A stretch of 64,000 bases of DNA from Gemmatimonadales bacterium (GCA_041613315.1 JBFJHJ010000001.1:1452-65451); one strand, 5' to 3'. Shown: positions 8,214-57,739, counted from the first letter of the stretch. Program-made: numbers and translations. Notes: generated by a model not told the origin, from the sequence alone.

Positions 8214-9196
8214 GCCCGCCTCCGACTCGGCTGCTCCACCAGCCAACACCGGGCCCGGTGCCCCGGTGTGGCCTCCAGATGCGGCGGCGGTGTCGTGCAC
8301 CGCTCCCACCCGTAGGCGCATCGTGGGTGGAAGCGACAGCCCTCGGGCCACGCGGTGGCGGGCGGCACTGCGCCCGGGATCGCGGCGAGGCGATCGGCGG
8401 GTCGGTCGAGTCGCGGCGCCGCGTTGAGCAGGGCCTCCGTATACGGATGCTGTGGCGCGGCGAATAACTGGCGCACCGGCGCCTCCTCGACGACCTGCCC
8501 CGCATACATGACCGCCACGCGGTCGGCGAGTCCGGCCACCACGCCCAAGTCGTGCGTGATCAGGATCATCGCCATACCCAGCTGGTGTTTGAGATGCGCC
8601 AGCAACTCGAGTATTTGCGCCTGGATGGTCACATCGAGCGCCGTGGTGGGCTCGTCGGCAATCAAGATCCGCGGCTCGCACGACAGCGCGATCGCGATCA
8701 TCACCCGTTGCTGCATGCCGCCGCTCAGCTGGTGGGGATAGTCGTTCATTCGTCGGGCCGCGTCCGCCAGGCCCACGAGCTCCAACAACTCGACCGCGCG
8801 CTGCCGTGCGGTCGCCCTGGTCATCACGCGGTGCGCCAGCAACGTCTCGGTGATCTGCGTGCCGACGGAGAGCACGGGATTGAGACTCGCCCCGGGCTCC
8901 TGGAAGATCATTGCGATCTCGGCGCCGCGGACCGCGCGTAGCTCCGACTCGGGCAGCTGCAGCAGGTTCCGACCGTCGTACTCGACGACGCTCTCTGCGC
9001 CGATCTCACCCGCCGGCCCCTCGATGAGCCGCAGGATCGAGAGGGCGGTGACCGTCTTGCCGCAGCCCGACTCCCCGACCAGCCCGAGGGTTTCCGCGGG
9101 GAACAGGTCGAACGACACGCCGTCGGCCGCGCGGGCGACGCCGTCCGCCGTGCGGAAGGTCGTACGCAGGTCCCGGACGCTGAGAAGCGGTTTCAT
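8210..9196 (-). CDS. Oligopeptide/dipeptide ABC transporter ATP-binding protein (OppD/DppD-like)
   Basis: Start at the ATG at 9196 ([14 protein letters not shown]...). [36 protein letters not shown]. Confidence 0.9.
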
Positions 9197-10029
9197 CGGG
9201 TGCGCGGATCCAGCGCGGCCTGGAGGGCGTCCCCCAGCAAGCTGAAGGCGATGACGGTGATGACGATCGCGAGGCCGGGAAACGCCACGGTCCACCAGGC
9301 GCTCACCATGAGGTCCTGGCTCTCGGCGATCATGAGCCCCCACGAGGGCGTGGGCTTGCGGACCCCGATCCCGAGAAAGGACAGGCCGGCCTCGACGAGC
9401 ACGATCTGGCCTATGCCGAGGGCCGCGCTCACCGTTATGGGGGCGGCGACGTTCGGGAGTATGTGACCGAACAGGGTCCGGGTGGGGCCGACGCCGAGCG
9501 CCCTCGTGGCCAGGACGAACTCTCGTTGCTTGAGGCTCAGGACCTCCGCGCGTACCAGCCGACTGGTGTCGAACCAGTTGGTGAGTCCGAGGATGACGAT
9601 CAGCACGGGCACGCCGACCGCCCCCCAGAGCCCCAGAATCACCAGGAGCAGGAAGATGCGCGGGATCGCGAGCGCCGTATCGACGGCGCGCATGGCCAGC
9701 GTGTCCAACGCGCCGCCGGCGAACCCCGCGACGAGACCCACCAGCGTTCCCACGACGATGGAGACCGTCACGGAGAGGAACGCGATCGCCAGAGAGATAC
9801 GGGCGCCGAACAGCACGCGGCTCAGGAGGTCCCGACTCAGAAGGTCGGTGCCGAAGGGGTGGGCGGGCGACGGCGCCAGCAGCTGTCGCTGCTCCAGATC
9901 GAGCTGCGCGATCGGATCGTAGGGACTGACGATCGGTGCCAGCAGGGCGCCGGCGACCAGCAGCGCGATGAGCAGCAGCCCCGCTTGCGCGCGCCGCTGG
10001 ACGAGGAGGCGCTGGACGGTGAGCGGCAT
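9193..10029 (-). CDS. Peptide ABC transporter permease (OppC/DppC-like)
   Basis: Start at the ATG at 10029 (MPLTVQRLL...) within ORF 9193..10881. It has a BPD-transporter EAA-like region (ATRALGVGPTRTLFGHILPN). Start and stop overlap both neighbours. Confidence 0.9.
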   Translation of the reverse strand: MPLTVQRLLVQRRAQAGLLLIALLVAGALLAPIVSPYDPIAQLDLEQRQLLAPSPAHPFGTDLLSRDLLSRVLFGARISLAIAFLSVTVSIVVGTLVGLVAGFAGGALDTLAMRAVDTALAIPRIFLLLVILGLWGAVGVPVLIVILGLTNWFDTSRLVRAEVLSLKQREFVLATRALGVGPTRTLFGHILPNVAAPITVSAALGIGQIVLVEAGLSFLGIGVRKPTPSWGLMIAESQDLMVSAWWTVAFPGLAIVITVIAFSLLGDALQAALDPRTR

Positions 10030-24246: not shown

Positions 24247-24756
24247 ATGAGCTTCCCCGGACGCATCGAGTCCCTCGCGGGTCCGCTCCCCCCCGTCGCG
24301 TTCCGGTGGGATGCGGAGACCGAGATCCTGGCCGCGCGGCTCACGGGTGTGCGGGGCCAACGCGGCTTCAGCGGGAGCGTCGAGTTCGAAGACGGTCGCG
24401 GCGCCGTGCTCACGCTCGATGTCGAACTGGGGGTCGCCTGCGGGCTGGAGGTCGTGGTCTGGCCCGAGGCGGACGTCGTGGACACGCTGGCGCCGCCGAC
24501 GCCGAAGCGCCAAGGGCGTCTCGTGGTGCCGGCGCGGCCGTCCCAGCCGGAGATCGGCGTGGTGGAGTTGGAGGTCTCCCTCTCCGCCGAGCGCAGCGCC
24601 GACGAATCGGTGATTCACGTGCGTGTGGGCCCTGCCCGCAAGTCGGAGCCGGTGAGTCTGGGCACCGGGCTCATCGCCGACGTGGACGGTGACGGCGATG
24701 TCGCCGGTTTCTGGCTCGTGGGCGTTCCGCCGTTCCCGACCGCGAAGGGGGTATGA
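24247..24756 (+). CDS. Hypothetical protein
   Basis: 169-aa ORF with ordinary composition and two similar halves, each ending in a ...LD/VDGDG..G.... pattern. Its stop overlaps the next start (ATGA at 24753-24756). Confidence 0.5.
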   Translation: MSFPGRIESLAGPLPPVAFRWDAETEILAARLTGVRGQRGFSGSVEFEDGRGAVLTLDVELGVACGLEVVVWPEADVVDTLAPPTPKRQGRLVVPARPSQPEIGVVELEVSLSAERSADESVIHVRVGPARKSEPVSLGTGLIADVDGDGDVAGFWLVGVPPFPTAKGV

Positions 24757-26429: not shown

Positions 26430-27455
26430 GTGCCGCGGCCGGCCCGGCGGAATCCCGCCTCGCCGGTCGGCCGGCGGCCCGGAGGCGGACGACTGACCCT
26501 CTCGATCCATCATCGGTTGCGGGACGCGCTTCTGCGCGCGGGTGGCACCCCGGGCGCGGATACGCCGCGCACGCACGCGGCGCCGCCGGTGCATTCCCCC
26601 TTCGCCGCGTCCACGCCCATCGAGCACGCGGCCGTGCGGGCGGTGGACGTGGGCGGGCCGGCCGAGCCGCCGGAGGGGACGGGGTTCCTCGACGGGATCC
26701 AGCGCTATGCCGTGGCGGGCCGAATCGGCCTCACGCCCGTCGTCCGTGCGGTAGTGGCGGCGGCCGTGCTCACCCGGCGGGCGGGCGCCCTGCGGCCCGC
26801 GCAGGTCGCGCACGAGGAGTTCGTGGTGGTTCCGTTCGCGCGGCTCACGGGAGCACAGCGGTCGGCGCTCGAGGAGGCGGACCTCCAGCTGCTCGAGTGC
26901 GAGGTCGACGAGCGCGCACACCCGATCCTCGACGTCCAGGCGGCGGTGCACGTGATCGAGCAACGCCGGGAGGCCCTGGAGCGACAGGTGGCGGAAGCGC
27001 ATCTGGTGGAGGAGCGTGACGCGTGGCTGGTCGTGGACGGGCCGATCGGCGCGCTCACGTGGCGGGGCGACGGACCCCCCCGGGTCCTGGGGATCGTCAA
27101 GAGTCACGAGACGCAGTACCTCGAGGGACCGGACCTGGAGGCGGCGCTCACCCTTCCCGCGGGGCACCGCACGAGCGTGTTCGGCCGCGCCACGGGGGGG
27201 CGCGGGGGGCGCAGGGAGGCCTTTTCGTGGTATCTTCGGTTATGGCCATGGGAGGATCACGACCTGCTGTTTGGGCTGGTGCGGCTGGAGCGTCCGTCGG
27301 TCCCTGAGGTGGCGGGAGAAGCGACGGCGGTGAGCCGCTGGATCCTGGCTGAGCGGGCGCCGTTGGCGGCGCCCGACGGCCGGTGGGATCGCCTCATCTA
27401 TCCGATCCAGCAGGTCGAGACCTACTTGCGGGCGCAGGCCGGGGGGTGGCTGTGA
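26430..27455 (+). CDS. nurA: NurA-like nuclease
   Basis: Motifs in NurA order: FLDGIQRY, WLVVDGPI, GIVKSHETQYL, FSWYLRL. The ORF has no internal Met. The first ~65 aa are Arg/Pro-rich, so the real start may be a later GTG (e.g. 26634). Its stop overlaps the herA start (GTGA). Confidence 0.55.
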   Translation: MPRPARRNPASPVGRRPGGGRLTLSIHHRLRDALLRAGGTPGADTPRTHAAPPVHSPFAASTPIEHAAVRAVDVGGPAEPPEGTGFLDGIQRYAVAGRIGLTPVVRAVVAAAVLTRRAGALRPAQVAHEEFVVVPFARLTGAQRSALEEADLQLLECEVDERAHPILDVQAAVHVIEQRREALERQVAEAHLVEERDAWLVVDGPIGALTWRGDGPPRVLGIVKSHETQYLEGPDLEAALTLPAGHRTSVFGRATGGRGGRREAFSWYLRLWPWEDHDLLFGLVRLERPSVPEVAGEATAVSRWILAERAPLAAPDGRWDRLIYPIQQVETYLRAQAGGWL

Positions 27456-29395
27456 TTCGGCTGGGCGACCCGCGTCCGATCGGCCGCGTCGTGGCCACGG
27501 AGGCTCTGCCCGCCACGCCGCACCAATTCCACTTCTGGACCGCCACGGAGACCCCCATCGGGATCGGGACGATCGTGCGCGTGGACGGTCTCGAGGGACG
27601 GAGCGCGTATGCGGTCGTGATGGACGGACGCGCGTACTCCGATCTCGCGACACCGCTCCACGATGTCGTGGCGGCCGACGGCGATCCCGCGGGCGCCCGG
27701 GCGCCAACGCGGCGCACCGAAGTGCGCCTCTGGACGGCCGCGGTCCTGCGGCATGTGCCGGAGGAGCCCGTGCAGCCGGTGTCGCTGTCGGACGTGTGGC
27801 TGGCCACCGCCCGCGACATCGAGACGGCGCTGCGCATGGACGCCTATGTCCATGGAGACGCCCCCACGGGGATTCCGATCGGCGTGTACCGAGGGGGCGG
27901 GCTCACGGCGCCGGTCTCGCTGGACGCGGGCTTCCTGCTGGGCCCCGAGTCGGCGCACCTCAACATCACCGGGATCTCGGGTCTGGCGACCAAGACCAGC
28001 GCCGTCGAATTCATCCTCGCAAGCATCTTCCAGCACCTGCCGAGGGCGAAGGGCACCGTGGCGGCCGTGTGCTTCAACGTGAAGGGGCCGGACCTCTGCT
28101 TCCTGGACCAGCCGACGGAGCTCACGGACGAGGACCGTGAACTCTACGGGGCGCTGGGCGTCGCGCCGGCGCCGTTCAAGGGCGTCTCGTACTACGCTCC
28201 CTTCAAAGCGGACGGCGTCAACCTGAACACGCTTCGCTCGCACCCGGATCTCGTGGGCTCGGTGCAACCGTTGGTCTGGGGGCTCCGGGAGGTGCTTGAC
28301 TACCACGAAGTCCTGCTCAGCCGCGACGACCTCGACGCCAAGTCCGACGCGTTCCTCGATTTCCTCGCGGATCGTGTGGTGGAGAAGTCGTTCGATGACG
28401 ACTGGGGCAACCGGCACCGGGTGCAGAGCTTCGCCGACCTCGAGCGCCTGTTCCGGGCGATCTTCGACGGGCTGGAGGCGGCGGGGCGGGGGGACATCTG
28501 GCGCACGCATCACATCGCGACGATCCGCAAGGTGCGGAACCGGTTGCTCAACATCTCGACGCGTTGCAAGGGGCTCGTCACCGACGACGGTACGGTGAGC
28601 GATCTCCCGTTCGGCCACTTCGAGGACCGGGCGGTGTATCTGCTCGATGTGGCCGGCATGGACCAGCTGGGGCAGGATCTCGTCTTCACCCGCGTCGTCT
28701 CGCGGCTCCGGGAGCACCTCGAGCGTCGCGATCTCGGGGTCGACCATGTGGTGGTGTTCGTGGACGAACTGAACAAGTACGCTCCCGGCGACGGGCCGGA
28801 AACGTACGTGAAGAAGATGCTGCTGGATATCTCCGAGCGGGGCCGGTATCTGGGCCTTGTCCTGTTTGCGGCTCAGCAGTTCCGCTCGCAGGTGCACCGT
28901 CGCATCGTGGGCAATGCCGGCACGATGGTCTTCGGACGCATGGATATGGACGAGCTCGCGACGCCGGGGTATCAAGTGCTGTCGCCGGCGACCAAGATCA
29001 AGCTCGCGACGCTGCCCAAAGGAGAGCTGATGGTGCGACATCCGCACTTCACGCAACCGATCTTCGTCCGCTTCCCCCGTCCCGCCGTCCTCAGCGGCCC
29101 GATGGGCGTGGCCCGCTTCCCGCCGGCGACAGACGTTCCGTTCGAGGACGCCGTGGTGCGACAGCTCGTCGCTCTCGATCGCCGGGTGGCGCCGGGGCGC
29201 GTCAAGGATATGATCGCCGACCGCCGGGAGGACGAGGTGCGCCGGGCCCTCCTCGCGACGCGCCGGGCGCGACCCGCGGACGCGCTCGCGTTCTTCCGGG
29301 CAAGCCTCGGCGACGCGGTGCCGGCGACGGCGGTGCGTCGGGCGGCCGGCGCCACCACTCCGCTCCGATCGGTGGAGGATCCCTATGCGACGTGA
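27452..29395 (+). CDS. herA: HerA-like FtsK/HerA-superfamily ATPase
   Basis: GTG 27452 is in frame with ORF 27383..29395. The N-terminus is HAS-barrel-like (IGRVVATEA...FHFWT...IGTIVRVDG). It has a P-loop-like GISGLATKTS, Walker B VVVFVDELNKY, and ERGRYLGLVLFAAQQFRSQV...TMVFGRM. Confidence 0.8.
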   Translation: MIRLGDPRPIGRVVATEALPATPHQFHFWTATETPIGIGTIVRVDGLEGRSAYAVVMDGRAYSDLATPLHDVVAADGDPAGARAPTRRTEVRLWTAAVLRHVPEEPVQPVSLSDVWLATARDIETALRMDAYVHGDAPTGIPIGVYRGGGLTAPVSLDAGFLLGPESAHLNITGISGLATKTSAVEFILASIFQHLPRAKGTVAAVCFNVKGPDLCFLDQPTELTDEDRELYGALGVAPAPFKGVSYYAPFKADGVNLNTLRSHPDLVGSVQPLVWGLREVLDYHEVLLSRDDLDAKSDAFLDFLADRVVEKSFDDDWGNRHRVQSFADLERLFRAIFDGLEAAGRGDIWRTHHIATIRKVRNRLLNISTRCKGLVTDDGTVSDLPFGHFEDRAVYLLDVAGMDQLGQDLVFTRVVSRLREHLERRDLGVDHVVVFVDELNKYAPGDGPETYVKKMLLDISERGRYLGLVLFAAQQFRSQVHRRIVGNAGTMVFGRMDMDELATPGYQVLSPATKIKLATLPKGELMVRHPHFTQPIFVRFPRPAVLSGPMGVARFPPATDVPFEDAVVRQLVALDRRVAPGRVKDMIADRREDEVRRALLATRRARPADALAFFRASLGDAVPATAVRRAAGATTPLRSVEDPYAT

Positions 29396-30287
29396 GGCCC
29401 TCTGGCTGTCCGTCTTCGCGGCATGCCTCGCGCCCGGCGCGGGCCTGGCGCAGGACTCCCTGCTCCTGCGCTACCGGCCGTTGCCCGGGGCGGTCGTGCA
29501 CCTGCTGGCCTCCACCGACGTGACCATGGCGATTCGGGACGTGAGCGGCGCCGCGACCGAGGCCGGGGTCCCCGACAGCATCACGTTGGAGACGACGATG
29601 CGGCAGAGCCTTACCGAGCGCGTCCGGCAGGCGGCGGAGGGCCGCTACCTGCTCGAGCGGACGCTCGACTCCACCCGGCTGCGTCTGCGCGCGATGGCGG
29701 GCGCGTGGTCCGAGCGACCGATGGACGCGGCGAGAGGCCGGACGGCACGGGTCGTCATGAACAGCCGTCTCCAGATGGGGGACTTCCAGCTCGTGGACGG
29801 TGACGGGGCGCCGGCCGTCGCCACCAACGCGCTCCGGGCCGGCGCGACGGGGTACGAGCTCGGCTTCCCCGACGAGCCGGTGGCGGCCGGACAGAGTTGG
29901 ACGGCCGAGGTGATCTATCCCTTTGCCAACCCGATCGAGCTCGAAGGCGCGGCACGGGCGCTCGTTGCGAACGCCGAGCTCATCGCCCGAGCGACGGTGA
30001 TCCTCGACAGTCTGGTCGCGCGCCCATCCGATACGCTGGCGTACCTGCGCATGTCGGGCACGTTCCTGCCGCTCACCATTCCGGCGTCACCTGAGTCCGG
30101 CCGTGGCGCGACCGACGTGACCGGCGCGTTGGCGGGCCGGCTGATCTGGTCCACCGGGTGGAACGCTTTCGTGTCCGGCGCCTCGCGAGCGGTGATCGTG
30201 GTGCAGTCGTCCACCGGGGACTCGACCGGCCAGCCGGCGACGCGCCTGCGCTTCGACGCCACGAGCCGGTTCCGCGTGCGGCCGTGA
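29385..30287 (+). CDS. Exported protein of unknown family (paralog A)
   Basis: GGAGGA lies 8 nt upstream of the ATG, and the gene overlaps the herA end by 11 nt. Signal peptide MRREALWLSVFAACLAPGAGLA-QD. It shares the motifs LRYxPxPG, GAWSE, DSxVARxxDTLAYL and WSTGWxAFV with the next gene. Confidence 0.65.
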   Translation: MRREALWLSVFAACLAPGAGLAQDSLLLRYRPLPGAVVHLLASTDVTMAIRDVSGAATEAGVPDSITLETTMRQSLTERVRQAAEGRYLLERTLDSTRLRLRAMAGAWSERPMDAARGRTARVVMNSRLQMGDFQLVDGDGAPAVATNALRAGATGYELGFPDEPVAAGQSWTAEVIYPFANPIELEGAARALVANAELIARATVILDSLVARPSDTLAYLRMSGTFLPLTIPASPESGRGATDVTGALAGRLIWSTGWNAFVSGASRAVIVVQSSTGDSTGQPATRLRFDATSRFRVRP

Positions 30288-31132
30288 TCGCCTACACCGC
30301 GGTCGTCGCCGGCCTCCTCGTCCTGGTGCCGGCGGGCGCCCAGGCCCAGGCCGTGAGGCTGCGCTACGCACCAGTCCCGGGAACGAAGCTCACCCGCGTG
30401 TTCCAGACCTATACGCGGATGGTGGTGCGGCTTCCCGCGGCGGGTGCCGGGAAGGTGCTGGAGACGCGGGAGATGGCCGACTTGGGCGGAACCAGCGAAC
30501 TCGTCCTCCCCGGGCCCGACGGGCACCCGGTGGTGCACGTGACGGTCGACTCGCTGCGAACCCGGGAGCGGACGGAAGGGGGTGCCTGGAGTGAATCCCG
30601 AGCGGCGCTGGACTCGGTCTGGTTCCAGCTGGACTTCGACGCGCGGCTCCGGCTGCGACGGGCCAACCGCGCTGACCGCGTGCCGGAAGCGGGTGCCCTG
30701 ATGCACTTGATGACCGGTCTCCCCGGGCTCATCCTGCCCGAGCGCCCCCTCCGAGTGGGCGAGCGCTGGTCGGTCGACATGGCGATGCCCCTGTCCGCGT
30801 GGGTGATGCGGCCGTCGAGCGCCGAACGCGAACCGCCGCTCAGGGGGGAGGCGACCCTCACGGTGGACAGCGTGGTGGCGCGCACGCGAGACACCCTGGC
30901 GTATCTGAGCGTCGAGGGGACGATCGGCCCGGACACGCCGGACATCGCGACGGCCTCGGTGTACGGTGGCGGCGTAACTGGCACGCTCGTCTGGTCCACG
31001 GGGTGGCACGCCTTCGTCGCTGCCGCCACCCGCGTTCGTATGCACGTCGCGGGGCCCGCCCCGCCGACGGCTGGCGGGCCGCGGCCGCAGGTGGCGATCG
31101 AGACGACGCTTCGCCAGCAGGTCCGCCCCTAG
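30284..31132 (+). CDS. Exported protein of unknown family (paralog B)
   Basis: GTG 30284 is in frame with ORF 30158..31132 and overlaps the upstream stop (GTGA). The N-terminus is hydrophobic (IAYTAVVAGLLVLVPAGAQA-QA). It carries the same motif set as paralog A. Confidence 0.6.
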   Translation: MIAYTAVVAGLLVLVPAGAQAQAVRLRYAPVPGTKLTRVFQTYTRMVVRLPAAGAGKVLETREMADLGGTSELVLPGPDGHPVVHVTVDSLRTRERTEGGAWSESRAALDSVWFQLDFDARLRLRRANRADRVPEAGALMHLMTGLPGLILPERPLRVGERWSVDMAMPLSAWVMRPSSAEREPPLRGEATLTVDSVVARTRDTLAYLSVEGTIGPDTPDIATASVYGGGVTGTLVWSTGWHAFVAAATRVRMHVAGPAPPTAGGPRPQVAIETTLRQQVRP

Positions 31133-31136
31133 GGCC

Positions 31137-32318
31137 GTGAAGCTCGCGCACCTCGCCGACGTCCACCTGGGCTTTCGCCAGTACCACCGCCTGACGCCCA
31201 CAGGAATCAATCACCGCGAAGCCGATGTCGCTCTCGCCTTCCGCCGTACGATCGATGACGTGATCGGCACGGGGCCGGACGCGGTCGTGATCGCGGGCGA
31301 TCTGTTTCACAGCGTGCGGCCGACCAACACGGCGATCTTGGATGCGTTCAATCAGCTCCGTCGGCTCCGCGAGGCACTGCCCGCTGCCCCCGTGGTGATC
31401 GTCGCCGGCGATCATGACACGCCGCGCTCGGTCGAGACCGGCACGATCTTGCGGCTCTTCGAGGCCCTCGGCGTTCATGTGGTCGCTGCGGAAGCGCGGG
31501 AACTCGTGTTCGGCGACCTGGACCTCCGGCTCTTGTGCGTGCCGCATGCGGCGCTCGTGAGCGGCGGGCGGCCCACCCTCACCCCCAAAGGTGGAGGCAC
31601 GACCGTGCTGGTCACGCACGGCGAGGTCGCCGGCGTGCTCCCCGAGCACGCCAGCGCCCGCGAGTTCGGCGGCAGCGTCATGGAGCCCTCCGAGCTGCAT
31701 GCGGAGCGATGGGATTACGTGGCGCTCGGCCACTATCACGTTGCGCACCGGGTGCGGGACAACGCGTGGTACGCCGGCGCGCTGGAGCATGTCAGCCCCA
31801 ACCCCTGGGGCGAGCTGCAGGACGAAGCGCGCGAGGGACGGCCCGGGCAGAAGGGATGGCTCCTCGTGGACCTGAGCGACGGCGCGCGCGTGACGTTCCG
31901 GCCGGTGGTGCAGGCCCGGCGCTTCATCGATCTGAAGCCGGTGCACGGCGACGGACTCACCGCGGACGAGATCCACGCGGCCATCCGCGAGCGGGTCGAT
32001 GCGGTGGCCGGCGGCGTGACGGATCAGGTCGTGCGCCAACTCGTGTGGGACGTGCCCCGTTCGGTGGCGCGAGACCTCGACCATGAGTGGATTCGCGCGG
32101 TCAAAGCTCGGGCCCTGCACTACCATCTGGATCTCCGGCGACCCCGCCCGCAGCGCGAGGTGGGCGTGGGCGCTCCGGGCGCGCGCCAGACGCTGAACGA
32201 TCTTCTGGCGGAGTACCTCGGCCACCGGCCGCTCCCGGCCGAGCTCGACCGGACGGCGCTGGTCGCGCTGGGGCGGCGGTATATGGAGGCGGTCGACCGC
32301 GAGGCCCAGGGGACGTAG
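31137..32318 (+). CDS. sbcD: Mre11/SbcD-family nuclease
   Basis: All phosphoesterase motifs are present: DVHLG, AGDLFH, AGDHD, VTHG, GHYH. Confidence 0.9.
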   Translation: MKLAHLADVHLGFRQYHRLTPTGINHREADVALAFRRTIDDVIGTGPDAVVIAGDLFHSVRPTNTAILDAFNQLRRLREALPAAPVVIVAGDHDTPRSVETGTILRLFEALGVHVVAAEARELVFGDLDLRLLCVPHAALVSGGRPTLTPKGGGTTVLVTHGEVAGVLPEHASAREFGGSVMEPSELHAERWDYVALGHYHVAHRVRDNAWYAGALEHVSPNPWGELQDEAREGRPGQKGWLLVDLSDGARVTFRPVVQARRFIDLKPVHGDGLTADEIHAAIRERVDAVAGGVTDQVVRQLVWDVPRSVARDLDHEWIRAVKARALHYHLDLRRPRPQREVGVGAPGARQTLNDLLAEYLGHRPLPAELDRTALVALGRRYMEAVDREAQGT

Positions 32319-34748
32319 ATGCAGCTCCACCGTCTCCGCCTCGAGAACTTTCGCCAGCACGCGCAGACCGAGATCGTGTTCGGTCCCGGCATCACGGCGA
32401 TCATCGGGCCCAACGGCGTGGGGAAGACCACACTGCTCGAGGCGATCGCCTGGGCGTTCTACGGCGCCTCCGCGGCCAGGGGCAGCCGCGACACCATCCG
32501 CTGGCACCACGCCCCCGCCCGGGCATCCGTTCGCGTGGACGTCGAATTCACCCTGGGCGCCCACGAGTTCCGCGTCGTCCGAGGCCTCTACACGGCGGAG
32601 TTGTTCCAGGACGGTGCGGAGCAGCCGATCGTCATCAGTCATCAGGAGGTCAGCGCCCGGATCGAGCGTTTCCTCGGCATGACGCGAGAGGAGTTCTTCA
32701 ATACGTATTTCACCGGACAAAAAGAGCTCGCGGTCATGGCGGCGATGGGACCGACCGACCGCGCGCGCTTCCTCTCGCACGTGCTGGGGTACGACAAGCT
32801 ACGGGTGGCGCAGGACCGCCTCCGGGAGGTGCGGTCCGGCCTGCGCGGAGAGCTCGCGGGCCTTGAGCGGGGGCTGGTCGATGCGGACGAGCTCTCGCGG
32901 GAACGGGAGACGGCGGTTGCCCGACTCGCCGCGGTCAGCCGGGCCGTGGAGGAAGGGCGCACGCGGCAGGGCGCGGCGCGTCTCGCGCTCGAGCGGGAAG
33001 GCCCAGCGTGGACCCGCGCCGTCGAGATACGAGAGTCGGCGCTCTCGCTGGATGGGGAGCGACGGGTGGCGGAACGGGATGTGGACGAGGCGCGTCGCGC
33101 ATTCGAGCGGCTTGACCGCGAGCTCGCCGAGGCGCTGGCGGCGAAGGACCGGCTGGCGACGCTCGCGCCGGAACTCGACCAGGTGGCGCCCCTCAAAGCG
33201 GACCTCGAGCGCCTCGAGCGGGAGGCGCAGGGGGCCGGCCGCCGCCGGGCGTTGGAGGGACAGCAGCGCGAGGTCGCGGACCAGGTGGCCCATGTGCGGG
33301 AGCGACTGGCTGGAGCGCAGGACGCGCCGCCCCGGCTCGACGCCGCGCAGCGCGCGCTTGCGCCGGCCCGTGAGACGCTCACGGTGGCGGAGGCGGCGGA
33401 GGAGACGGCGCGGACGGCGTGGGTGCGGGACCGGCAGGACGCGGAAACGAAGCGGCAGACGTTCCGAGACCAGTATGCCGACGTGCAGAAGCACCGCCAT
33501 GCGGTCGTGGAGGCCGGGTCGGAGGGAGCGTGTCCGGTGTGCAAGCGCGCGCTGGGCGCCGTGTATCAGGAAGTGCTCGACACGTTGGAACGACAGCTGG
33601 AGGAGATCGAGGTCAAGGGCAAGTTCTTCCGGCAGCGCTACGAGCAACTCGGCACGGAGCCGGCGGAGGTTCGCGAGGCGCAGCGCCGAGCGGTTGCCGC
33701 GGCACGGCGCGTGGAAGAGGCCGTGCAGGACGTGGCGCGGTGGGAGGCGCGGGAGCGGGAGCGGGCCGAGTTGGATACGGAAGTCGCGCGGCTCGAGGAA
33801 CACCGCCGGGCACTCGAGCGCGAGGTGGCGGCGCTCCCGGACACGTATGATGCGGAACGGCACGACACGGTACGCCAGCGGCTCCGGGCGCTGGAGCCCA
33901 CGATCCAGCAGGCGGCAGAGGTGCGGGGGAAGGCCGAGCGGGCCGAGCGGCTGGTCACGGAGGCCGAAGCGGCCGAGAAGGCGCTCTCTCAGTGCGAGCA
34001 GCGCGTCAAGGATCTGCAGGCAGCCCTGGCCGATCTGGGGTACAGTGAGGAGCGTTACCATGAGGCGCGGTCGCGCTACGAGGCCGCTGCGGCCGCGGTA
34101 CGGGAGGCGGACCTGGAACTGGCGTCGGTGCAGGGAGATCTGCGGGCCTGTGAGGCGACGCTGGAGGCAGTGGCGCGGCGCATCAAGGAACGGGAGGAAC
34201 GGGCGGCGCGCCTTGTGGGCGTCCGGCGGGAGCTGGATCTCCACGACGAGCTGGACCAGACGCTCCACGACCTCCGGCTGGAGCTCAATGCGGCCATGCG
34301 GCCGGATCTGTCCGAGCGGGCGTCCGAGTTCCTCGCCGACTTGACGGACGGTCGCTATCACGAGCTGGAACTGGACGAGCAGTACCGGGTGCTGGTCATC
34401 GAAGACGGCGTCCCCAAACCCGTGATGTCCGGGGGCGAGGAGGATCTGACCAACCTGGTCCTGCGACTGGCGATCAGCCAGATGGTGGCCGAACGCGCAG
34501 GACAGCCCTTGTCCTTGCTCGTGCTCGATGAAATCTTCGGGAGTCTGGACGAGCATCGGCGGCGCAACGTGGTGGAGCTGCTCCGGCGGCTCGGTGACCG
34601 GTTCCCGCAGGTGGTGCTCATTACGCACGTCGAGTCGGTACGCGACGGCGTCGACCGGGTGCTTCGGGTGGCGTTCGACGAAGAGCGCGGGGCCGCGGTC
34701 GTGACCGACGACGAGGAGGTTCCAGTCGGTGAAGATGTGGCGGCCTGA
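32319..34748 (+). CDS. sbcC: Rad50/SbcC-family SMC-like ATPase
   Basis: Walker A GPNGVGKTT, long coiled coil with zinc hook CPVC, signature SGGEE, Walker B LLVLDE, H-loop LITHV. 809 aa. It starts immediately after the sbcD stop. Confidence 0.9.
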   Translation: MQLHRLRLENFRQHAQTEIVFGPGITAIIGPNGVGKTTLLEAIAWAFYGASAARGSRDTIRWHHAPARASVRVDVEFTLGAHEFRVVRGLYTAELFQDGAEQPIVISHQEVSARIERFLGMTREEFFNTYFTGQKELAVMAAMGPTDRARFLSHVLGYDKLRVAQDRLREVRSGLRGELAGLERGLVDADELSRERETAVARLAAVSRAVEEGRTRQGAARLALEREGPAWTRAVEIRESALSLDGERRVAERDVDEARRAFERLDRELAEALAAKDRLATLAPELDQVAPLKADLERLEREAQGAGRRRALEGQQREVADQVAHVRERLAGAQDAPPRLDAAQRALAPARETLTVAEAAEETARTAWVRDRQDAETKRQTFRDQYADVQKHRHAVVEAGSEGACPVCKRALGAVYQEVLDTLERQLEEIEVKGKFFRQRYEQLGTEPAEVREAQRRAVAAARRVEEAVQDVARWEARERERAELDTEVARLEEHRRALEREVAALPDTYDAERHDTVRQRLRALEPTIQQAAEVRGKAERAERLVTEAEAAEKALSQCEQRVKDLQAALADLGYSEERYHEARSRYEAAAAAVREADLELASVQGDLRACEATLEAVARRIKEREERAARLVGVRRELDLHDELDQTLHDLRLELNAAMRPDLSERASEFLADLTDGRYHELELDEQYRVLVIEDGVPKPVMSGGEEDLTNLVLRLAISQMVAERAGQPLSLLVLDEIFGSLDEHRRRNVVELLRRLGDRFPQVVLITHVESVRDGVDRVLRVAFDEERGAAVVTDDEEVPVGEDVAA

Positions 34749-35703
34749 GCGTGTCGTGCAGGGCCCGCGCGTGGCGTCACTCGAGGACATCCCGGCGCTC
34801 AACCGGGTGTTCTCGGATGCGTTCACCGACCGATACCGTCGGGACGGGCTGGTTGGGGTGCGAGTTCCCCAGTTGAACCCCGATATCTGGCGCTACGCGC
34901 TCGAGGATGCCGGCGACGGGGCGATGCTCTGGTACGACGAGAGCGGGGAGATCATCGCGTTCAACATCGCGCACCGCTCCGGCACCGAGGGGTGGATGGG
35001 CCCCCTCGCGGTCCGAGCCGACCGCCAGGGCCTGGGTCTTGGGCGCACGATCGTCGAGACGGCGGTCGACTGGCTTCTGGAGCGCGGTGTCACGACGCTG
35101 GGGCTTGAGACGATGCCGCGAACCGTGGACAACATCGGTTTCTATGGCCGGTTGGGCTTTCTCCCCACGTATCTGACGGTGACGATGACCGGCGAGCCCG
35201 GTCGACGCAACGTCGCCGGCCGGTTCCAGCGAGTGGGCGCGCTCCCGCCACACGCCAAGCGGGACATCGTGGCCCGGTGCCGCGAGCGGCTGACGCAAGC
35301 CGCCCCGGGCTACGATTTCAGCCGCGAGATGGAGCTGACCGACGAGTTGGGGATCGGCGACACCGTGGTACTCGAGCGAAACGGTGTCGTGGCGGGCTTC
35401 GCCCTGTGGCACTCGGCGCCGCTCGCCGAAGTGCGCCCCACGGATGAGCTCAGGATCCTCAAGCTGTTCGCCGACTCGACCGATGCGTTCGGGCGCCTGC
35501 TCGTGATGCTCGATGCCTGCGCCGCGGCGCTCGGGATCCGCCGCGTCGCCATCCGGTGCCAGACCGCCTACGCGGACGCCTACCACACCCTGCTGGCGCG
35601 GGAGTACCGCGTGCGCTGGACGGACCTCCGTATGACCTACGCGAGCTTCCGCGAAGCAACGCCGCCCGCGGGGCACGTGCTGTTTTCGAACTGGGAGATC
35701 TGA
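34729..35703 (+). CDS. GNAT-family N-acetyltransferase (two-lobed)
   Basis: GTG 34729 lies 9 nt after GAGGAGG and overlaps the sbcC end by 20 nt (an alternative ATG is at 34735). Acetyl-CoA motif VRADRQGLGLGRTIV. Confidence 0.75.
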   Translation: MKMWRPERVVQGPRVASLEDIPALNRVFSDAFTDRYRRDGLVGVRVPQLNPDIWRYALEDAGDGAMLWYDESGEIIAFNIAHRSGTEGWMGPLAVRADRQGLGLGRTIVETAVDWLLERGVTTLGLETMPRTVDNIGFYGRLGFLPTYLTVTMTGEPGRRNVAGRFQRVGALPPHAKRDIVARCRERLTQAAPGYDFSREMELTDELGIGDTVVLERNGVVAGFALWHSAPLAEVRPTDELRILKLFADSTDAFGRLLVMLDACAAALGIRRVAIRCQTAYADAYHTLLAREYRVRWTDLRMTYASFREATPPAGHVLFSNWEI

Positions 35704-35705
35704 GC

Positions 35706-35864
35706 CTACCGCTGGGCGCGATCCCGATCCACGATCCCCTTGACGAGGAAGACCGTGCCGACGGCGAGCGGCACGTGCACCCATCCACTGGGGACCGCCC
35801 ACACGAACGCCAGCGCCAGCCACAGTACGAGACAGCCCAGCGCGAGCGCGAACGCCCGGTTCAT
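35706..35864 (-). CDS. Small membrane protein (lmo0937/DUF5670-like, 52 aa)
   Basis: MNRAFALALGCLVLWLALAFVWAVPSGWVHVPLAVGTVFLVKGIVDRDRAQR has two TM helices. GGGAGG lies 7 nt upstream of ATG 35864. The longer ORF (to 36014) is Arg/Pro-rich. Confidence 0.55.
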   Translation of the reverse strand: MNRAFALALGCLVLWLALAFVWAVPSGWVHVPLAVGTVFLVKGIVDRDRAQR

Positions 35865-36003
35865 TCCGGTGCCTCCCGTCGGGGGAGCCGGCGGACGCAG
35901 ACGTGCCGAATGACGCGAGCGTGCCGGCGAGCCTTGGCAAGGTACGCGACCGACGGCGGACCGCAATACTCCCGAGAATAAGCGACAGCGGTGCTGGGCG
36001 CGC

Positions 36004-36032
36004 TTGACGGTCATCAGCGGTGTTTCTATATT
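36004..36032 (+). promoter_or_regulatory. Near-consensus sigma-70-like promoter
   Basis: TTGACG (36004-36009), 17-nt spacer, TATATT (36027-36032). It lies about 320 nt upstream of folE in the only long non-coding stretch of the window. Confidence 0.45.
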
Positions 36033-36050
36033 CGCGCACTCGCGGGGGTG

Positions 36051-36190
36051 GGGAGCAACATTATTGAGCCAACAAGCTCGACAGCGCGTCCAGGTGCGGC
36101 GGTGGATGTCATGCCCCGCTGGGGAAGGCAGAAGTCGCGGCTAGGGCGCGATAGATGTGTGTTCGGGCTTCAATAATCCTCTTCGCTCCC
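36051..36190 (+). ncRNA. Structured RNA domain in the folE leader (class unknown; cis-regulatory or independent sRNA)
   Basis: Nested long-range pairings seen by eye: GGGAGC(36051-56)/GCUCCC(36185-90); AUUAUUGAGCC(36060-70)/GGC-U-UCAAUAAU(36166-77); CGCGUCC(36085-91)/GGGCGCG(36144-50). GC content is locally lower. Confidence 0.3.
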
Positions 36191-36353
36191 GTTTTCCCCG
36201 CGCTTCCATGGGCGGGGAACTTCTGACGGCGGCTCGGCGCGTGTGACGCCGGGCCGCCATTCGCTTGCCGGCCCGGTCGAGTAGATTACGCTGCTTCCAC
36301 GGACGCCGCTGCGTGGACGTGGCAGGCGACGTCACGACGAAAGGACGGCGCTG

Positions 36354-36965
36354 GTGTCCCAGGATCCCAAGATCGTCTCGCTCAAAGAATCCGCCGCGGT
36401 CGACGGCGAACTCCGCCGCCTGGTGCGCCGGCTGCTCGAGCTCATTGGAGAGGATCCTTTGCGCGAGGGGCTGGTGCGCACGCCGGCCCGCGTGGAGGAG
36501 TCTCTCCAGTGGCTCACCCGGGGCTACCAAGAGTCGCTGGAGCAGGTGGTGGAAGGCGCGATCTTTCGGGAGTCGCACGACAACATGATCATGGTGCGCG
36601 ACATCGAGATCTACTCGCTGTGCGAGCACCACATCCTGCCGTTCTTCGGGAAGGCGCATGTGGCGTACCTGCCCGCCGGGAAGATCATTGGTCTCTCGAA
36701 GATCCCGCGGATCGTGGACATCTTCGCCCGCCGGCTGCAGATCCAGGAGCGGCTCACCGACCAGGTGGCGGATGCCATCTGCGACGTGCTGGAACCCCGT
36801 GGGGTGGGGGTCGTGATCGAGGCGTATCACCTGTGCATGATGATGCGTGGCGTCGAGAAGCAGAACTCGAAGACCGTCACCAGCGCCCTGCGCGGCCACT
36901 TCCATGACGGCAAGACGCGGGACGAGTTCTTGCGGCTGGCCCACGGAGGGAACTGGCTCGGGTGA
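36354..36965 (+). CDS. folE: GTP cyclohydrolase I
   Basis: Motifs [25 protein letters not shown] and [12 protein letters not shown] start with AAGGA 8 nt upstream. Confidence 0.95.
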
Positions 36966-37660
36966 GCGACCTCGCCGGCAAGGTCGCGCTGGTCACGGGC
37001 GCGAGCCGGGGCATCGGACTGGCCATCGCCGAGCGCCTCGAGGAAGCGGGAGCGCATGTCGTGCGACTGGCGCGCAGTCTCACACCCGCGACGACCGCAA
37101 CCCGGACCGACATCTCCTGCGACGTGACCGACGCCGCGGCCGTGCGGCGCGCCGTGCAGCAGCTGGTGGCGGCGGGACATGTGCCCGACATCGTGATCAA
37201 CAACGCGGGCAGCTTCTTGTTGAAGCCGCTGGGCGAGACCACCGCCGACGAATTCGAGAACCAGCTCGCCGTGAACCTCGTCGGCCCCTTCCACGTGCTC
37301 CGCGCCCTCCTTCCCTATTTGACCCAGCGTGACCGGGCGCATGTCGTGACGATCGGCAGTGTCGCCGATCACCGGCCCTACGCAGGTAATGCGGCGTACG
37401 GCGCCAGCAAGTACGGCGTTCGGGGGCTGCACGAGGTACTGGTGGAAGAGTTGCGCGGCCAAGGCATCCGCACCACGCTCATTTCGCCGGGACCCACCGA
37501 CACCCGGCTGTGGGATCCGCTGGAGCCTGAGCGGCGCGACGATGTCCCGCCGCGGGAGGCGATGCTCCACCCCGAAGACGTGGCCGACGCGGTGCTGTAC
37601 GTCCTCACCCGCCCGCCACGCGTGAGCATCGAATGGGTGCGGCTCATGCCGGTGGTGTGA
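36962..37660 (+). CDS. Short-chain dehydrogenase/reductase (possible pterin/sepiapterin-type reductase by context)
   Basis: GTG 36962 overlaps the folE stop (GTGA). Motifs TGASRGIG and YGASKYG. Confidence 0.85.
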
Positions 37661-37768: not shown

Positions 37769-38380
37769 ATGTTCATCGAGCTCGCTGAGTTCCTTCGCTG
37801 CCCCGAGGGGCACCCGGACGAGCCGTATTGTGTGGTGGCGCCGGACGTCATGGTGGAGCGGCGCGTCGTGCGGGGCTCCGTCGGCTGCCCGGTGTGCCGC
37901 CGGGAATACGGAATCGCCGCCGGTGTGGTCGATTTCGGTGCGGGGTTCGGCGGCGCACCGCCCGCGACGGAGCCCGCCGGTGGGGGAGCGCTCCCGGACG
38001 CGGCGGTCGTGCAGGCGCTCCTGGGGCTGGAGAGCACCGGTGGGTACGTGGTCCTGTTCGGGTCGGCGGCGCACCTGGCGATGGGGTTGGCGGCGCTACG
38101 GCCGGGGGTCCATCTCGTGGGGGTGAATGCGCCGCCCGAGGTGGAGCCGTCGCCGGCCTTCAGCCTCCTCCGGCATCCCGCAGTCGCCCCGTTGCGATCG
38201 GCGATGGCGCGAGGCGTCGTCATGGGGCGTGAGACGACCGTGCCGTCATGGTTGGCCGAGGGCGCTCGGGTCTTGCTTCGTGGGCAGCGGCTCGTCGCGC
38301 TGCGAGAAGCGGTGGCGGTGCCAGGCGTGGCGACGTTGGCGGACGGTCAGGGGCTTTGGGTGGGCCAGAAGACGTTATGA
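37769..38380 (+). CDS. Trm112-like zinc-ribbon domain protein with C-terminal extension
   Basis: FLRCPEG...GSVGCPVCRREYGIAAGVVDF matches the Trm112p-like pattern. The C-terminal half has no clear motif. Confidence 0.5.
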   Translation: MFIELAEFLRCPEGHPDEPYCVVAPDVMVERRVVRGSVGCPVCRREYGIAAGVVDFGAGFGGAPPATEPAGGGALPDAAVVQALLGLESTGGYVVLFGSAAHLAMGLAALRPGVHLVGVNAPPEVEPSPAFSLLRHPAVAPLRSAMARGVVMGRETTVPSWLAEGARVLLRGQRLVALREAVAVPGVATLADGQGLWVGQKTL

Positions 38381-56417: not shown

Positions 56418-57659
56418 CTAGAACTCGGCGGTGATCGCGAGCGCGAGGAGGTTGTTGGCGACCTGTGGAGCGTCTCGGCCCTCGCGCTGCACGAGGTAGG
56501 CGAGCTTGGCCTTGAGCAGATCCGTCGCCTGCACCTCGACGCCGGCGCCGAACTGGGTGCGCCGCAAGGTCTGGCCGGCCAGGGTCTCCTCGTCGGCATA
56601 GCCCCATCGGCCGACCAGGCTCACCCGTTGCACCTGTTTGGATCTCGGCGTCAGGACGATCGCGGGCTCAACCGTGGCACCCCGGCGGTCGAGCCGCGGG
56701 AGCGGGGCGCCCTCGAGGTCCTCCCGTGAGCGGTAGTAGTAGCCCGAGAGCCTGAACCCCGGCGCCTCGACCCTGAGGTCGGGCCCGAGCGCCCAGAACT
56801 CGGCGCCGTATCGGCGCGGATCGTCGATGCCGAAATCGGTGGACGTGCCCGAGCGCATGCGGCCGCGGGCCGCGCTGAATCCGAGATCCACCTTCGCGGC
56901 GCTGCGGACGGCGACGGCGAGCCGGCCCGTGAGCGACCGGTCACCATCCGCATCGAACGCCGTGGCCATCACGTTGTCCATCAACTCAAAGCTCGGCACA
57001 CCGTTGCCGACGGCGGCCACGTAGTTGATCCCCACCCGCCGGCCGACCAGCCATTCGCCCTCCGCCATCGCGCCGACTTCGTTGTAGTGGGCCGGCACCG
57101 CCTCCCCCGCGGCGGGGGAGAGCACGCTGAACGTGTTGACGGCCGAGAACCATTCATGGTTGTGGATCCCGAAGGGCCACCAGAACCGCCCGAAAGCGAA
57201 CCGGAGGCTGGCGTCTCCGCCGGCGAGTCCCGCCACGTCCCACGTGACCTTCGCCTCGGTAATGACGGGGTCGAGGCCGTTCCCCACGAAGTGGAGCTCG
57301 ACCACGGCTCCCACGCCGCGCAGGGGCTCGCCACCGACGAACACGGCGGCGTCATTGCGGAAGCCCGACTCGTTCACGCCCGTGCGCGGACTCAGGCCGC
57401 TGACGAGGATCTGCGGCGTCGCGCCGACCTCGCTGCCCAGGCCGTCCTGCGCTTCCACATAGACCATCGTGACGTACCCGTGGAGCCGGAAGAAGCTCGT
57501 CGGGTGCGCGTATTGGCCGCTCGCCGTGGTGCGCCGGATATCGCTCAGCGTTACCGTGTCGCTCGGCTCCTCCTGGCCCGGTAGCAGGCCGGCGGAGAGA
57601 GTCCCGAAGAACGAGACCAGCACGCTCGCGCGGATGAGGCCGCGCCGGGCTCTTTGCAT
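56418..57659 (-). CDS. Outer-membrane beta-barrel porin-like protein (phosphate-selective porin O/P-like)
   Basis: ATG 57659 is preceded by GGAGGAG. It has a signal peptide, alternating beta-strand patterns and the C-terminal ...LALAITAEF (terminal Phe). Confidence 0.6.
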   Translation of the reverse strand: MQRARRGLIRASVLVSFFGTLSAGLLPGQEEPSDTVTLSDIRRTTASGQYAHPTSFFRLHGYVTMVYVEAQDGLGSEVGATPQILVSGLSPRTGVNESGFRNDAAVFVGGEPLRGVGAVVELHFVGNGLDPVITEAKVTWDVAGLAGGDASLRFAFGRFWWPFGIHNHEWFSAVNTFSVLSPAAGEAVPAHYNEVGAMAEGEWLVGRRVGINYVAAVGNGVPSFELMDNVMATAFDADGDRSLTGRLAVAVRSAAKVDLGFSAARGRMRSGTSTDFGIDDPRRYGAEFWALGPDLRVEAPGFRLSGYYYRSREDLEGAPLPRLDRRGATVEPAIVLTPRSKQVQRVSLVGRWGYADEETLAGQTLRRTQFGAGVEVQATDLLKAKLAYLVQREGRDAPQVANNLLALAITAEF

Positions 57660-57739
57660 GTTCTCCTCCATCGCTCCATGAGCCCGTCGACCATCCGGTA
57701 GCCGGGCGCACCACATTCTCGCGCCGTGGCGCACACTGC

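Follow-up and report, generated by a model that had tools for sequence, protein, structure and literature searches.

The 64,000-nucleotide stretch analysed here (GCA_041613315.1 JBFJHJ010000001.1:1452-65451; hereafter the window) belongs to a Gemmatimonadota soil bacterium, the source record being a Gemmatimonadales metagenome-assembled genome (MAG). At positions 26430-35703 it carries a compact block of seven open reading frames (ORFs) on the + strand, which encode a putative bacterial-type NurA nuclease, a HerA-type translocase, two paralogues of a predicted exported family (X1 and X2), Mre11, Rad50 and a tandem-GNAT acetyltransferase. We consider it likely that this block is a chromosomal, vertically inherited unit of Gemmatimonadota for the processing (end resection) of DNA double-strand break (DSB) ends, and among the roles listed in an initial annotation of the sequence, DSB processing is the one that we judge the most likely. 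The most fitting view of the block is that of two sub-modules, nurA-herA and (X)-mre11-rad50-GNAT, which usually adjoin each other and in this genome are packed together. ORF listing and translation returned the boundaries of the initial annotation, its six junctions agree with the public annotation as well (Table 1), and all the motifs that it quoted are present at the mapped positions. The same seven genes, with identical starts in the public annotation, are present on a contig of another Gemmatimonadales MAG (GCA_041599715.1) that differs by 15 mismatches over 18.4 kb. Orthologue mapping finds the block order again in about 100 other loci, and the arrangement is therefore far beyond chance. 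The seven-gene unit is probably co-transcribed in this genome.

Assignment of the NurA-HerA and Mre11-Rad50 pairs

Searches with ORF1 and ORF2 gave no Pfam or NCBIfam match, even at E≤0.1, and the Pfam library includes HerA-type models such as DUF87. Since none of ORF1 to ORF4 matches Pfam or NCBIfam, the NurA and HerA assignments of the initial annotation, for which the curated profiles offer no support, needed another test. Searches against the PDB provided it: with phmmer, ORF1 matched the NurA of Deinococcus radiodurans (PDB identifier 7f6d_H) with an E-value of 3.2e-6, and a profile of 24 NurA sequences matched T. maritima TM1739 (PDB identifier 1zup; 2e-6 over positions 38-277) and 7f6d_H (1.5e-5). 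This similarity at the level of sequence and profile lends modest support to ORF1 as a bacterial-type NurA. Among its putative catalytic acidic and His positions, E184 and D203 (of VVDG) are invariant in the 24 orthologues, while D88 (of FLDG) and K224-S225-H226 are near-invariant, with a conservation of ≥90%. The N-terminal 60-80 residues of NurA as called (window 26430-26680) are rich in Arg, Pro and Gly and could not be aligned among orthologues. Because this region is unconserved, the real start may lie downstream of the called one, and further in-frame starts are present at 26517, 26589, 26634, 26643 and 26649.

ORF2 matches the D. radiodurans HerA (PDB identifier 7f6d_B) with a phmmer E-value of 1.4e-39 over two stretches, residues 10-314 and 397-545, so that the similarity includes the RecA-like ATPase as well as the N-terminal (HAS-barrel) region. 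A profile of 41 HerA sequences retrieves the same structure with an E-value of 1e-102 over positions 5-545; its remoter matches include 9x1l, annotated as 'DNA helicase' (9e-14), and the S. solfataricus HerA (PDB identifier 4d2i; 1.7e-3). Across 41 diverse homologues, the Walker A, Walker B and arginine-finger residues G174, G177, K181, D438, E439 and R465 never vary. Judged by these similarities, ORF2 is a bacterial-type HerA and a predicted hexameric double-stranded DNA (dsDNA) translocase. The start of the longest ORF, at 27383, was rejected, as no such product is on record and the start at 27452 fits both the public annotation and the orthologue alignments. There are more than 6400 homologues of HerA, of which the best 120 are all from Gemmatimonadota at 75-100% identity. 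In public records, HerA homologues are labelled 'ATP-binding protein' or 'hypothetical'.

Mre11 and Rad50, in turn, are recognized by the curated libraries. Mre11 matches Pfam Metallophos (7e-12, 46.6 bits against a cutoff of 21.5), and in NCBIfam archaeal Mre11 models come first (9e-24 and 9e-21), followed by the SbcD model TIGR00619 (7e-18). The scores stay below the curated equivalog cutoffs (84 bits against 500 for Mre11_Sulfo and 65 against 77.65 for TIGR00619), and this Mre11 is a divergent member of the family and no equivalog of any curated subgroup. In the PDB it matches the Mre11 of P. furiosus and M. jannaschii (3e-13) and that of T. maritima (6e-6). Rad50 matches Pfam SMC_N (2e-23, 83.5 bits against a cutoff of 40, residues 3-788), AAA_23 and SbcC_Walker_B. 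Its NCBIfam E-value is 1e-62 for the archaeal Rad50 model PRK03918 as against 1.6e-27 for the SbcC model TIGR00618, with both scores below the equivalog cutoffs (212 bits against 700 and 96 against 478.5, respectively), and its PDB matches are the Rad50 of M. jannaschii (2e-29), P. furiosus (1e-28) and T. maritima (7e-22). With an H-loop (ITHV) at residues 768-771 in addition to the motifs of Table 1, this Rad50 has the sequence features of a split ABC head around a predicted long coiled coil with a central CxxC zinc hook. By their scores, both proteins are closer to archaeal Mre11 and Rad50 than to SbcCD models. On these profile and structure-database tests, the NurA, HerA, Mre11, Rad50 and GNAT assignments of the initial annotation all hold, those of NurA and HerA through 7f6d and, for the NurA profile, TM1739 rather than through Pfam or NCBIfam.

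Gene order, the tandem GNAT and the exported X family

A scan of one genome per GTDB species, with a 13-sequence HerA alignment as the probe, returned 80 loci, all from Gemmatimonadota, in which HerA is 60-81% identical to that of the window. The order NurA-HerA-[slot]-Mre11-Rad50-GNAT, together with the strand, is kept in virtually every one of these loci that is of sufficient length. Identities to the window proteins drop in step across the loci, and no gene stands out in a way that would suggest exchange. The conservation of HerA and that of GNAT, whose orthologue alignment has a mean column identity of 63%, indicate that both are under strong purifying selection. The junctions are tight: NurA to HerA has a median spacing of -4 nt and overlaps in 40 of 68 loci, Mre11 to Rad50 is separated by ≤12 nt in all 65 loci, and Rad50 to GNAT by ≤8 nt in all 57 HerA-seeded loci, overlapping in 51 of them.

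Rad50 thus has no more constant partner than the acetyltransferase, which the initial annotation had described as appended to the operon but which is far from loosely attached. The sole exception seen to this tight coupling is one of three GNAT-seeded loci (L103, the others being HR33 and L102), where an opposite-strand PD40/Tricorn-like gene (8835-9932) is present between rad50 and GNAT and the other block genes are present. The protein matches Pfam Acetyltransf_1 (4.5e-14, residues 52-144, 53.2 bits against a cutoff of 20.7), and its nearest PDB sequences are RimI- and Naa-type protein N-acetyltransferases, which are weak matches (1e-5 or weaker). Its AlphaFold2 (AF2) model, with a predicted local distance difference test (pLDDT) of 90, contains two GNAT-like α/β domains. 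The best Foldseek match of the model is that of 3ddd from P. horikoshii (template modelling (TM) score 0.65/0.74), and further matches are 3tt2, VipF, 5kf1, MAB_4324, NMT and Eis, the E-values against tandem GNATs ranging from 5e-15 to 1e-10. The substrates of these fold neighbours are sugars, aminoglycosides or proteins. An alternative start of GNAT, ATG at 34735, would leave the overlap with rad50 in place.

The herA-mre11 junction, unlike the others, is a variable slot and a modular breakpoint. Among 75 loci, the slot is empty (<200 bp) in 27, measures 200-500 bp in three, holds one gene of 0.85-1 kb in 35, holds two genes in five, all of the window lineage, and holds unrelated genes over 2-4.4 kb in another five; the latter include a histidine kinase, an opposite-strand ClC channel, PAP2, a molybdo-oxidoreductase and a Rieske reductase. 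Other loci depart further from the standard order. In bacterium HR33 (L088 4815-10975, GCA_002923375.1) the order is amidohydrolase, methyltransferase, X, Mre11, Rad50 and GNAT; NurA and HerA are not at this locus, and an O-methyltransferase gene takes their place. L102 (2713-10972) has HerA-X-Mre11-Rad50-GNAT with NurA not adjoining, and a Longimicrobiales locus has nurA 4.7 kb away from herA and a rad50 that is not followed by GNAT; the deviating loci include HR33, L102, L072, L022 and L033. Such loci, together with L103, are the reason why the block is best seen as two sub-modules. The initial annotation had presented the genes as one operon: they are compact here, but the unit is not indivisible, as shown by the breakpoint and by the loss of NurA-HerA where X-Mre11-Rad50-GNAT stays. 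Cross-phylum sampling consisted of five look-ups of 50%-cluster representatives, with remoter HerA proteins of 36-54% identity; four-gene clusters without GNAT or X were found in two of them (P0136 and P0155) and lone NurA-HerA pairs in three (P0140, P0148 and P0164). In two related species, a same-strand gene for a GlpD-like FAD oxidoreductase (DAO, DAO_C) is present between nurA and herA (L022 8296-9969 and L033 8306-9979).

X1 and X2 are true paralogues (30% identity, E=2e-26), each with a signal-peptide-like segment, as the initial annotation had proposed. Such a hydrophobic segment, mostly ending in A-x-A followed by Q, directly precedes the conserved domain in 45 of 46 family members, and export is therefore, on these sequence patterns rather than on a dedicated signal-peptide predictor, a conserved property predicted for the X family. 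A lipobox-like Cys replaces the A-x-A|Q site in about 10 of the 46 members. One subclade of single-copy X proteins (L010, L015, L016, L017, L032 and others) has LTAC, VAGC, LLAC or AVGC at this site, so that the family seems to have switched between a lipoprotein and a soluble periplasmic form. No match to X was found in Pfam, NCBIfam or PADLOC, and only 15 word-sharing homologues are present among 5.8 billion proteins. The AF2 model of X1 (pLDDT 84) is all-β with about 14 β-strands. Foldseek searches of the PDB gave no convincing relative, with LmcA (TM 0.31), the ApoB barrel (0.41) and outer-membrane barrels among the matches and no TM-score above 0.41, and nothing matched among viral structures. 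Two other interpretations of X were rejected: that of an ORF artefact, given the G+C content at third codon positions (GC3) of 0.85-0.91, more than 50 orthologues and the pLDDT of 84; and that of an outer-membrane porin, as undemonstrated, with TM ≤0.3 and a C-terminus of conserved R-P and no aromatic residue. ORF4 (X2) has a sole in-frame alternative start, at 30158.

The genomic address of X is fixed. X genes occur solely just upstream of mre11, in 41 HerA-seeded loci, in 13 of 13 X-seeded metagenome loci and in HR33, L102 and L103; an iterated hidden Markov model (HMM) search found none elsewhere in about 1.3 Mb of surveyed flanks and showed every single-gene slot insert to be a member of the family. 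Duplication of X is confined to the subclade of the window (L001-L005 and the closest X-seeded metagenome loci L089-L092, L094 and L095). The HerA tree has three major clades, one of which lacks X, while in the other two X is present but for scattered losses; overall it is missing in about one third of species. The two inserted genes of the initial annotation are exported paralogues, but X1 and X2 arose by recent tandem duplication from a single accessory gene, which is tied to mre11 and not to herA.

Function of the block and competing explanations

In D. radiodurans, NurA-HerA resects DNA ends (PMC9960219), and archaeal HerA-NurA works together with Mre11-Rad50 (PMC3326311, PMC2288612). By analogy with D. 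radiodurans, a HerA hexamer acting as a dsDNA translocase and capped by a NurA nuclease dimer would push DNA ends into NurA for resection, and the archaeal-like Mre11-Rad50 would recognize, tether and nick or clean the ends. Homology and synteny suggest that the four enzymes may cooperate as in thermophilic archaea. The GNAT, translationally coupled to rad50, might acetylate a component or substrate of the Mre11-Rad50 step, for example by Lys or N-terminal acetylation of a repair or end-binding protein. X would be an accessory or passenger gene and would not be catalytic in resection; its product, a β-protein predicted to be exported or a lipoprotein, evolves fast and can be dispensed with.

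Several observations weigh against this proposal. Co-transcription and function in Gemmatimonadota are proposed from homology and synteny. NurA has modest support only, with E about 1e-6, and neither it nor HerA is recognized by curated family models. Unrelated genes are present between herA and mre11, between nurA and herA (L022 and L033) and, once, between rad50 and GNAT; the parts therefore need not all be coupled, physically or functionally. With a single phylum involved, common descent rather than selection could account for some of the synteny, and it is not obvious what an exported protein would do in DNA repair, a cytoplasmic process. Motif III of Mre11 reads GDHD in the window and its three closest relatives as against the canonical GNHD in 60 other Gemmatimonadota orthologues, a lineage-specific Asn to Asp change at a position that contributes to metal or phosphate coordination. 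Also, nurA and herA mutants of D. radiodurans are reported to have growth and recombination defects with radioresistance intact (summarised in PMC5448004).

The most serious competitor of a resection unit is a conserved neighbourhood without functional unity, in which NurA-HerA and Mre11-Rad50 would be independent repair modules with GNAT and X as passengers or housekeeping genes. We regard this as possible, though clearly less probable. It would account for the entry of unrelated genes, some on the opposite strand, at the herA-mre11 breakpoint, for the persistence of the rest of the block without NurA-HerA in HR33, for a HerA without an adjoining NurA in L102, for the gene between rad50 and GNAT in L103, and for the frequency of lone NurA-HerA pairs among distant HerA relatives; moreover, folE-SDR is likewise syntenic downstream without an obvious link. 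It would not explain why GNAT follows Rad50 as tightly as Rad50 follows Mre11 while the upstream neighbour is unconserved and the distance to folE variable, nor why X occurs exclusively just upstream of mre11, nor why four-gene clusters recur in remoter lineages and in Oceanithermus. A contrary extension of the resection reading, in which GNAT and the exported X are both genuine partners of a bacterial Mre11-Rad50 machine, would make the block a six-component system without a described counterpart. GNAT would then be a dedicated acetyl-switch acting on Rad50, Mre11, HerA or an end-binding protein, and X would tie break processing to the envelope, for example through periplasmic or extracellular DNA or through the signalling of envelope or desiccation damage; taken as a whole, this is a speculative and unlikely combination. 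The narrower claim that GNAT alone is a dedicated regulator of Mre11-Rad50 is more plausible, and we put it forward tentatively.

Two further roles raised in the initial annotation, envelope-linked DNA translocation and nucleic-acid-directed defence, found no positive evidence. HerA is a member of the FtsK/HerA pump superfamily, and a HerA pump working with exported X, with the nucleases processing DNA, could in principle form a translocation or uptake machine of the competence or transjugation type. Thermus HepA and a NurA-like protein have been linked to transjugation (PMC5448004), the export signals of X are conserved with some members being lipoproteins, and mature X is mildly basic (median isoelectric point 8.8). 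However, the idea is undercut since X goes with mre11 and not with herA, staying where herA is absent from the locus; since X is dispensable in a third of species (27 of 75 loci and one whole clade lack it but keep the enzymes); and since no membrane-spanning, secretin, pilus or competence genes are present in the block or its flanks. HerA itself has no transmembrane segment, among solved structures the soluble DrHerA-NurA resection complex comes nearest to it, and the X fold is unlike known DNA-binding or channel proteins at a meaningful TM-score, all of which make such a machine highly improbable. Anti-phage or anti-plasmid defence through HerA- and SMC/Rad50-like ATPases with nucleases, in the style of HerA-Sir2/DUF4297, Lamassu or MADS, would fit the PADLOC matches of Rad50 to LmuB (4e-36) and mad3 (5e-35) and of HerA to mad8 (5e-5), as well as the weak matches of the HerA profile to the defence-type HerA structures 9c1m (1e-7) and 8xau (1e-6). 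But the PADLOC matches (LmuB, mad3, PbeC and mad8) are at the level of the superfamily only and make up no complete known system, and the HerA profile favours DrHerA (1e-102) over the defence HerAs (≤1e-7), with E-values more than 90 orders of magnitude apart. This makes defence very unlikely, and we rank it the lowest of the explanations considered. NurA, X and GNAT have no support from defence models, and Mre11 has a sub-threshold match only. In most of 80+ species the block is found at one place on the chromosome, between the same flanks, with no mobility genes and no compositional anomaly, and such vertical conservation is the opposite of the patchy, island-borne pattern of defence.

Chromosomal setting, known systems and significance

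Upstream of the block, the window encodes a glycine-cleavage P protein, CoaE, thymidine kinase, a DbpA-type helicase, an aminotransferase and an amidohydrolase, and downstream folE, an SDR, an acyl-CoA synthetase and a pyrimidine-nucleoside phosphorylase. The flanks hold no integrase, transposase or defence gene, in agreement with the initial annotation, which favoured a core function, as does the phylum-wide vertical conservation. An interpretation as a mobile island was rejected. The flanks are housekeeping genes, G+C is 70% across the whole window, the locus shows no compositional break and matches the genome, and the GC3 of the seven ORFs (0.85-0.91) is comparable to that of neighbouring genes. 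A promoter and terminator scan, which is uninformative for this phylum, found nothing inside the block. GNAT is followed by a 650-bp gap (35704-36353) ahead of folE-SDR (36354-37660), in which no riboswitch was found; tRNA and Rfam scans were empty. The sole sigma-70-like promoter match of the region (36004-36032, + strand) is present just before folE-SDR, which is syntenic downstream in many species at a distance to folE that varies from 0.5 to 4 kb. The upstream neighbour of the block is not conserved among loci.

Three well-supported ORFs of the window (GC3 0.85-0.88) have no Pfam match: 37769-38380 (+), 24247-24756 (+) and 56418-57734 (-). The 169-aa ORF directly upstream of the amidohydrolase keeps its position in L001, L088 and L102. 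A gene for the NAD-dependent DNA ligase LigA is present about 9-10 kb downstream of the block in L088 (19636-20975) and L102 (20412-20972); LigA was not seen among the scanned ORFs of the window at the corresponding position.

Table 1. Genes, junctions and sequence motifs of the block (window coordinates).
Feature	Position	Strand	Description
nurA (ORF1)	26430..27455	+	putative bacterial-type NurA nuclease, 341 aa as called
herA (ORF2)	27452..29395	+	bacterial-type HerA, predicted hexameric translocase/ATPase, 647 aa
X1 (ORF3)	29385..30287	+	predicted exported all-β protein, orphan Gemmatimonadota family, 300 aa
X2 (ORF4)	30284..31132	+	tandem paralogue of X1, 282 aa
mre11 (ORF5)	31137..32318	+	Mre11/SbcD-family nuclease, 393 aa
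rad50 (ORF6)	32319..34748	+	Rad50/SbcC-family ABC ATPase, predicted coiled coil and zinc hook, 809 aa
GNAT (ORF7)	34729..35703	+	tandem-GNAT acetyltransferase, 324 aa
nurA/herA junction	27452-27455	+	GTGA, nurA stop overlapping herA start
herA/X1 junction	29385-29395	+	11-nt overlap
X1/X2 junction	30284-30287	+	GTGA overlap
X2/mre11 junction	31133-31136	+	4-nt gap
mre11/rad50 junction	32318/32319	+	TAG then ATG, 0-nt gap
rad50/GNAT junction	34729-34748	+	20-nt overlap
HerA Walker A	27971-28000	+	GISGLATKTS, residues 174-183
HerA Walker B	28748-28780	+	DE at residues 438-439
HerA Arg-finger region	28835-28855	+	R465
X1 signal peptide	29385-29450	+	signal-peptide-like segment ending A-x-A then Q
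X2 signal peptide	30284-30346	+	signal-peptide-like segment ending A-x-A then Q
Mre11 phosphoesterase motif I	31158-31172	+	DVHLG
Mre11 motif II	31296-31310	+	GDLFH
Mre11 motif III	31407-31418	+	GDHD
Mre11 motif IV	31611-31622	+	VTHG
Mre11 motif V	31728-31739	+	GHYH
Rad50 Walker A	32406-32432	+	residues 30-38
Rad50 zinc hook	33531-33542	+	CPVC, residues 405-408 of 809, mid-coil
Rad50 signature	34428-34442	+	SGGEE, residues 704-708
Rad50 Walker B	34515-34532	+	LLVLDE, residues 733-738
GNAT acetyl-CoA motif	35023-35046	+	RQGLGLGR, residues 99-106, N-terminal domain
GNAT C-terminus	35686-35700	+	SNWEI, invariant, family-specific

The block shares with the archaeal herA-mre11-rad50-nurA operon of Sulfolobus and Pyrococcus the clustering of the same four families and the presumed function in DSB end resection, and its Mre11 and Rad50 score best with archaeal models and structures. 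It differs in the order of the genes (nurA-herA-...-mre11-rad50), in the variable slot with an exported protein and the rad50-coupled GNAT, and in the host, which is bacterial and mostly from non-thermal environmental metagenome sources; its HerA and NurA belong to the bacterial, Deinococcus-like clade, which is remote from archaeal HerA, as the E-value of 4d2i indicates. The closest solved homologue of ORF1 and ORF2 is the NurA-HerA of D. radiodurans (PDB identifier 7f6d; PMC9960219), with which they share the nurA-then-herA order and the overlapping stop and start, though the similarity of NurA is low (E about 1e-6). The operon described in the cited work on Deinococcus and Thermus consists of the nurA-herA pair only (PMC9960219, PMC5448004), and its context in Thermus is unrelated to DNA metabolism (PMC5448004), whereas here it is joined to mre11-rad50-GNAT. 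A direct bacterial precedent for the four-gene arrangement comes from another phylum, Deinococcota: in Oceanithermus profundus, sbcD-sbcC (the Mre11/Rad50 homologues) are mentioned in passing as lying directly downstream of nurA-hepA, with no GNAT or X-type gene reported in that paper (PMC5448004).

The SbcCD of E. coli and Bacillus belongs to the same superfamilies, with a calcineurin-like nuclease and an SMC-like zinc-hook ABC ATPase encoded by overlapping genes, but the proteins of the block score much more weakly with SbcC/SbcD models than with archaeal Rad50/Mre11. The E. coli SbcC chain is not among the PDB matches of Rad50 at E≤1e-3, and at 809 aa this Rad50 is shorter than E. coli SbcC, which has about 1050 aa. 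The GNAT has two GNAT-like domains per chain, like 3ddd, S. thermophilus 3tt2, Legionella VipF, M. abscessus MAB_4324 and Eis, but the identity to these is only 10-20% and the SNWEI C-terminus is specific to the family described here; to our knowledge, none of these tandem GNATs is linked to Mre11-Rad50. X resembles mycobacterial LmcA, the β-barrel or β-taco lipid carriers and outer-membrane β-barrels in being all-β, predicted to be exported and of about 260-280 residues when mature, but with TM-scores of 0.2-0.4 and a root mean square deviation of ≥9.5 Å there is no evidence of homology and X stays an orphan.

A four-gene core of this kind is thus no novelty in bacteria, as the Oceanithermus profundus nurA-hepA-sbcD-sbcC cluster has already been noted (PMC5448004), and the proposal of the initial annotation that the composition was undescribed stands for the constant GNAT and the slot-specific X only. 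Full-text searches of the literature, with earlier comparative work on bacterial HerA-NurA contexts outside their scope, returned no description of this block in Gemmatimonadota and no GNAT linked to Mre11-Rad50 in prokaryotes. New are the phylum-wide conservation of the four genes in largely mesophilic bacteria, the near-constant tandem GNAT coupled to rad50, the orphan exported X family at its fixed address upstream of mre11, and the demonstration that herA-mre11 is a modular breakpoint.

These results also reveal an annotation gap: this bacterial clade of NurA and HerA escapes the Pfam and NCBIfam models, and for that reason thousands of its proteins carry the label "hypothetical" or "ATP-binding protein". 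In addition, the results define X as a new orphan family of exported proteins with a strictly fixed genomic address. Whether bacterial NurA-HerA works together with Mre11-Rad50, as it does in archaea, is a question that studies have addressed in Deinococcus and Thermus, whose two modules are reported apart. A whole, largely mesophilic phylum that keeps the four genes together, and some of whose members (Gemmatimonas) are in culture, therefore lends itself to tests of the archaeal resection model in bacteria. The tandem GNAT, coupled in translation to rad50 almost without exception, likewise yields a testable hypothesis, namely that bacterial DSB processing may be under the control of acetylation.

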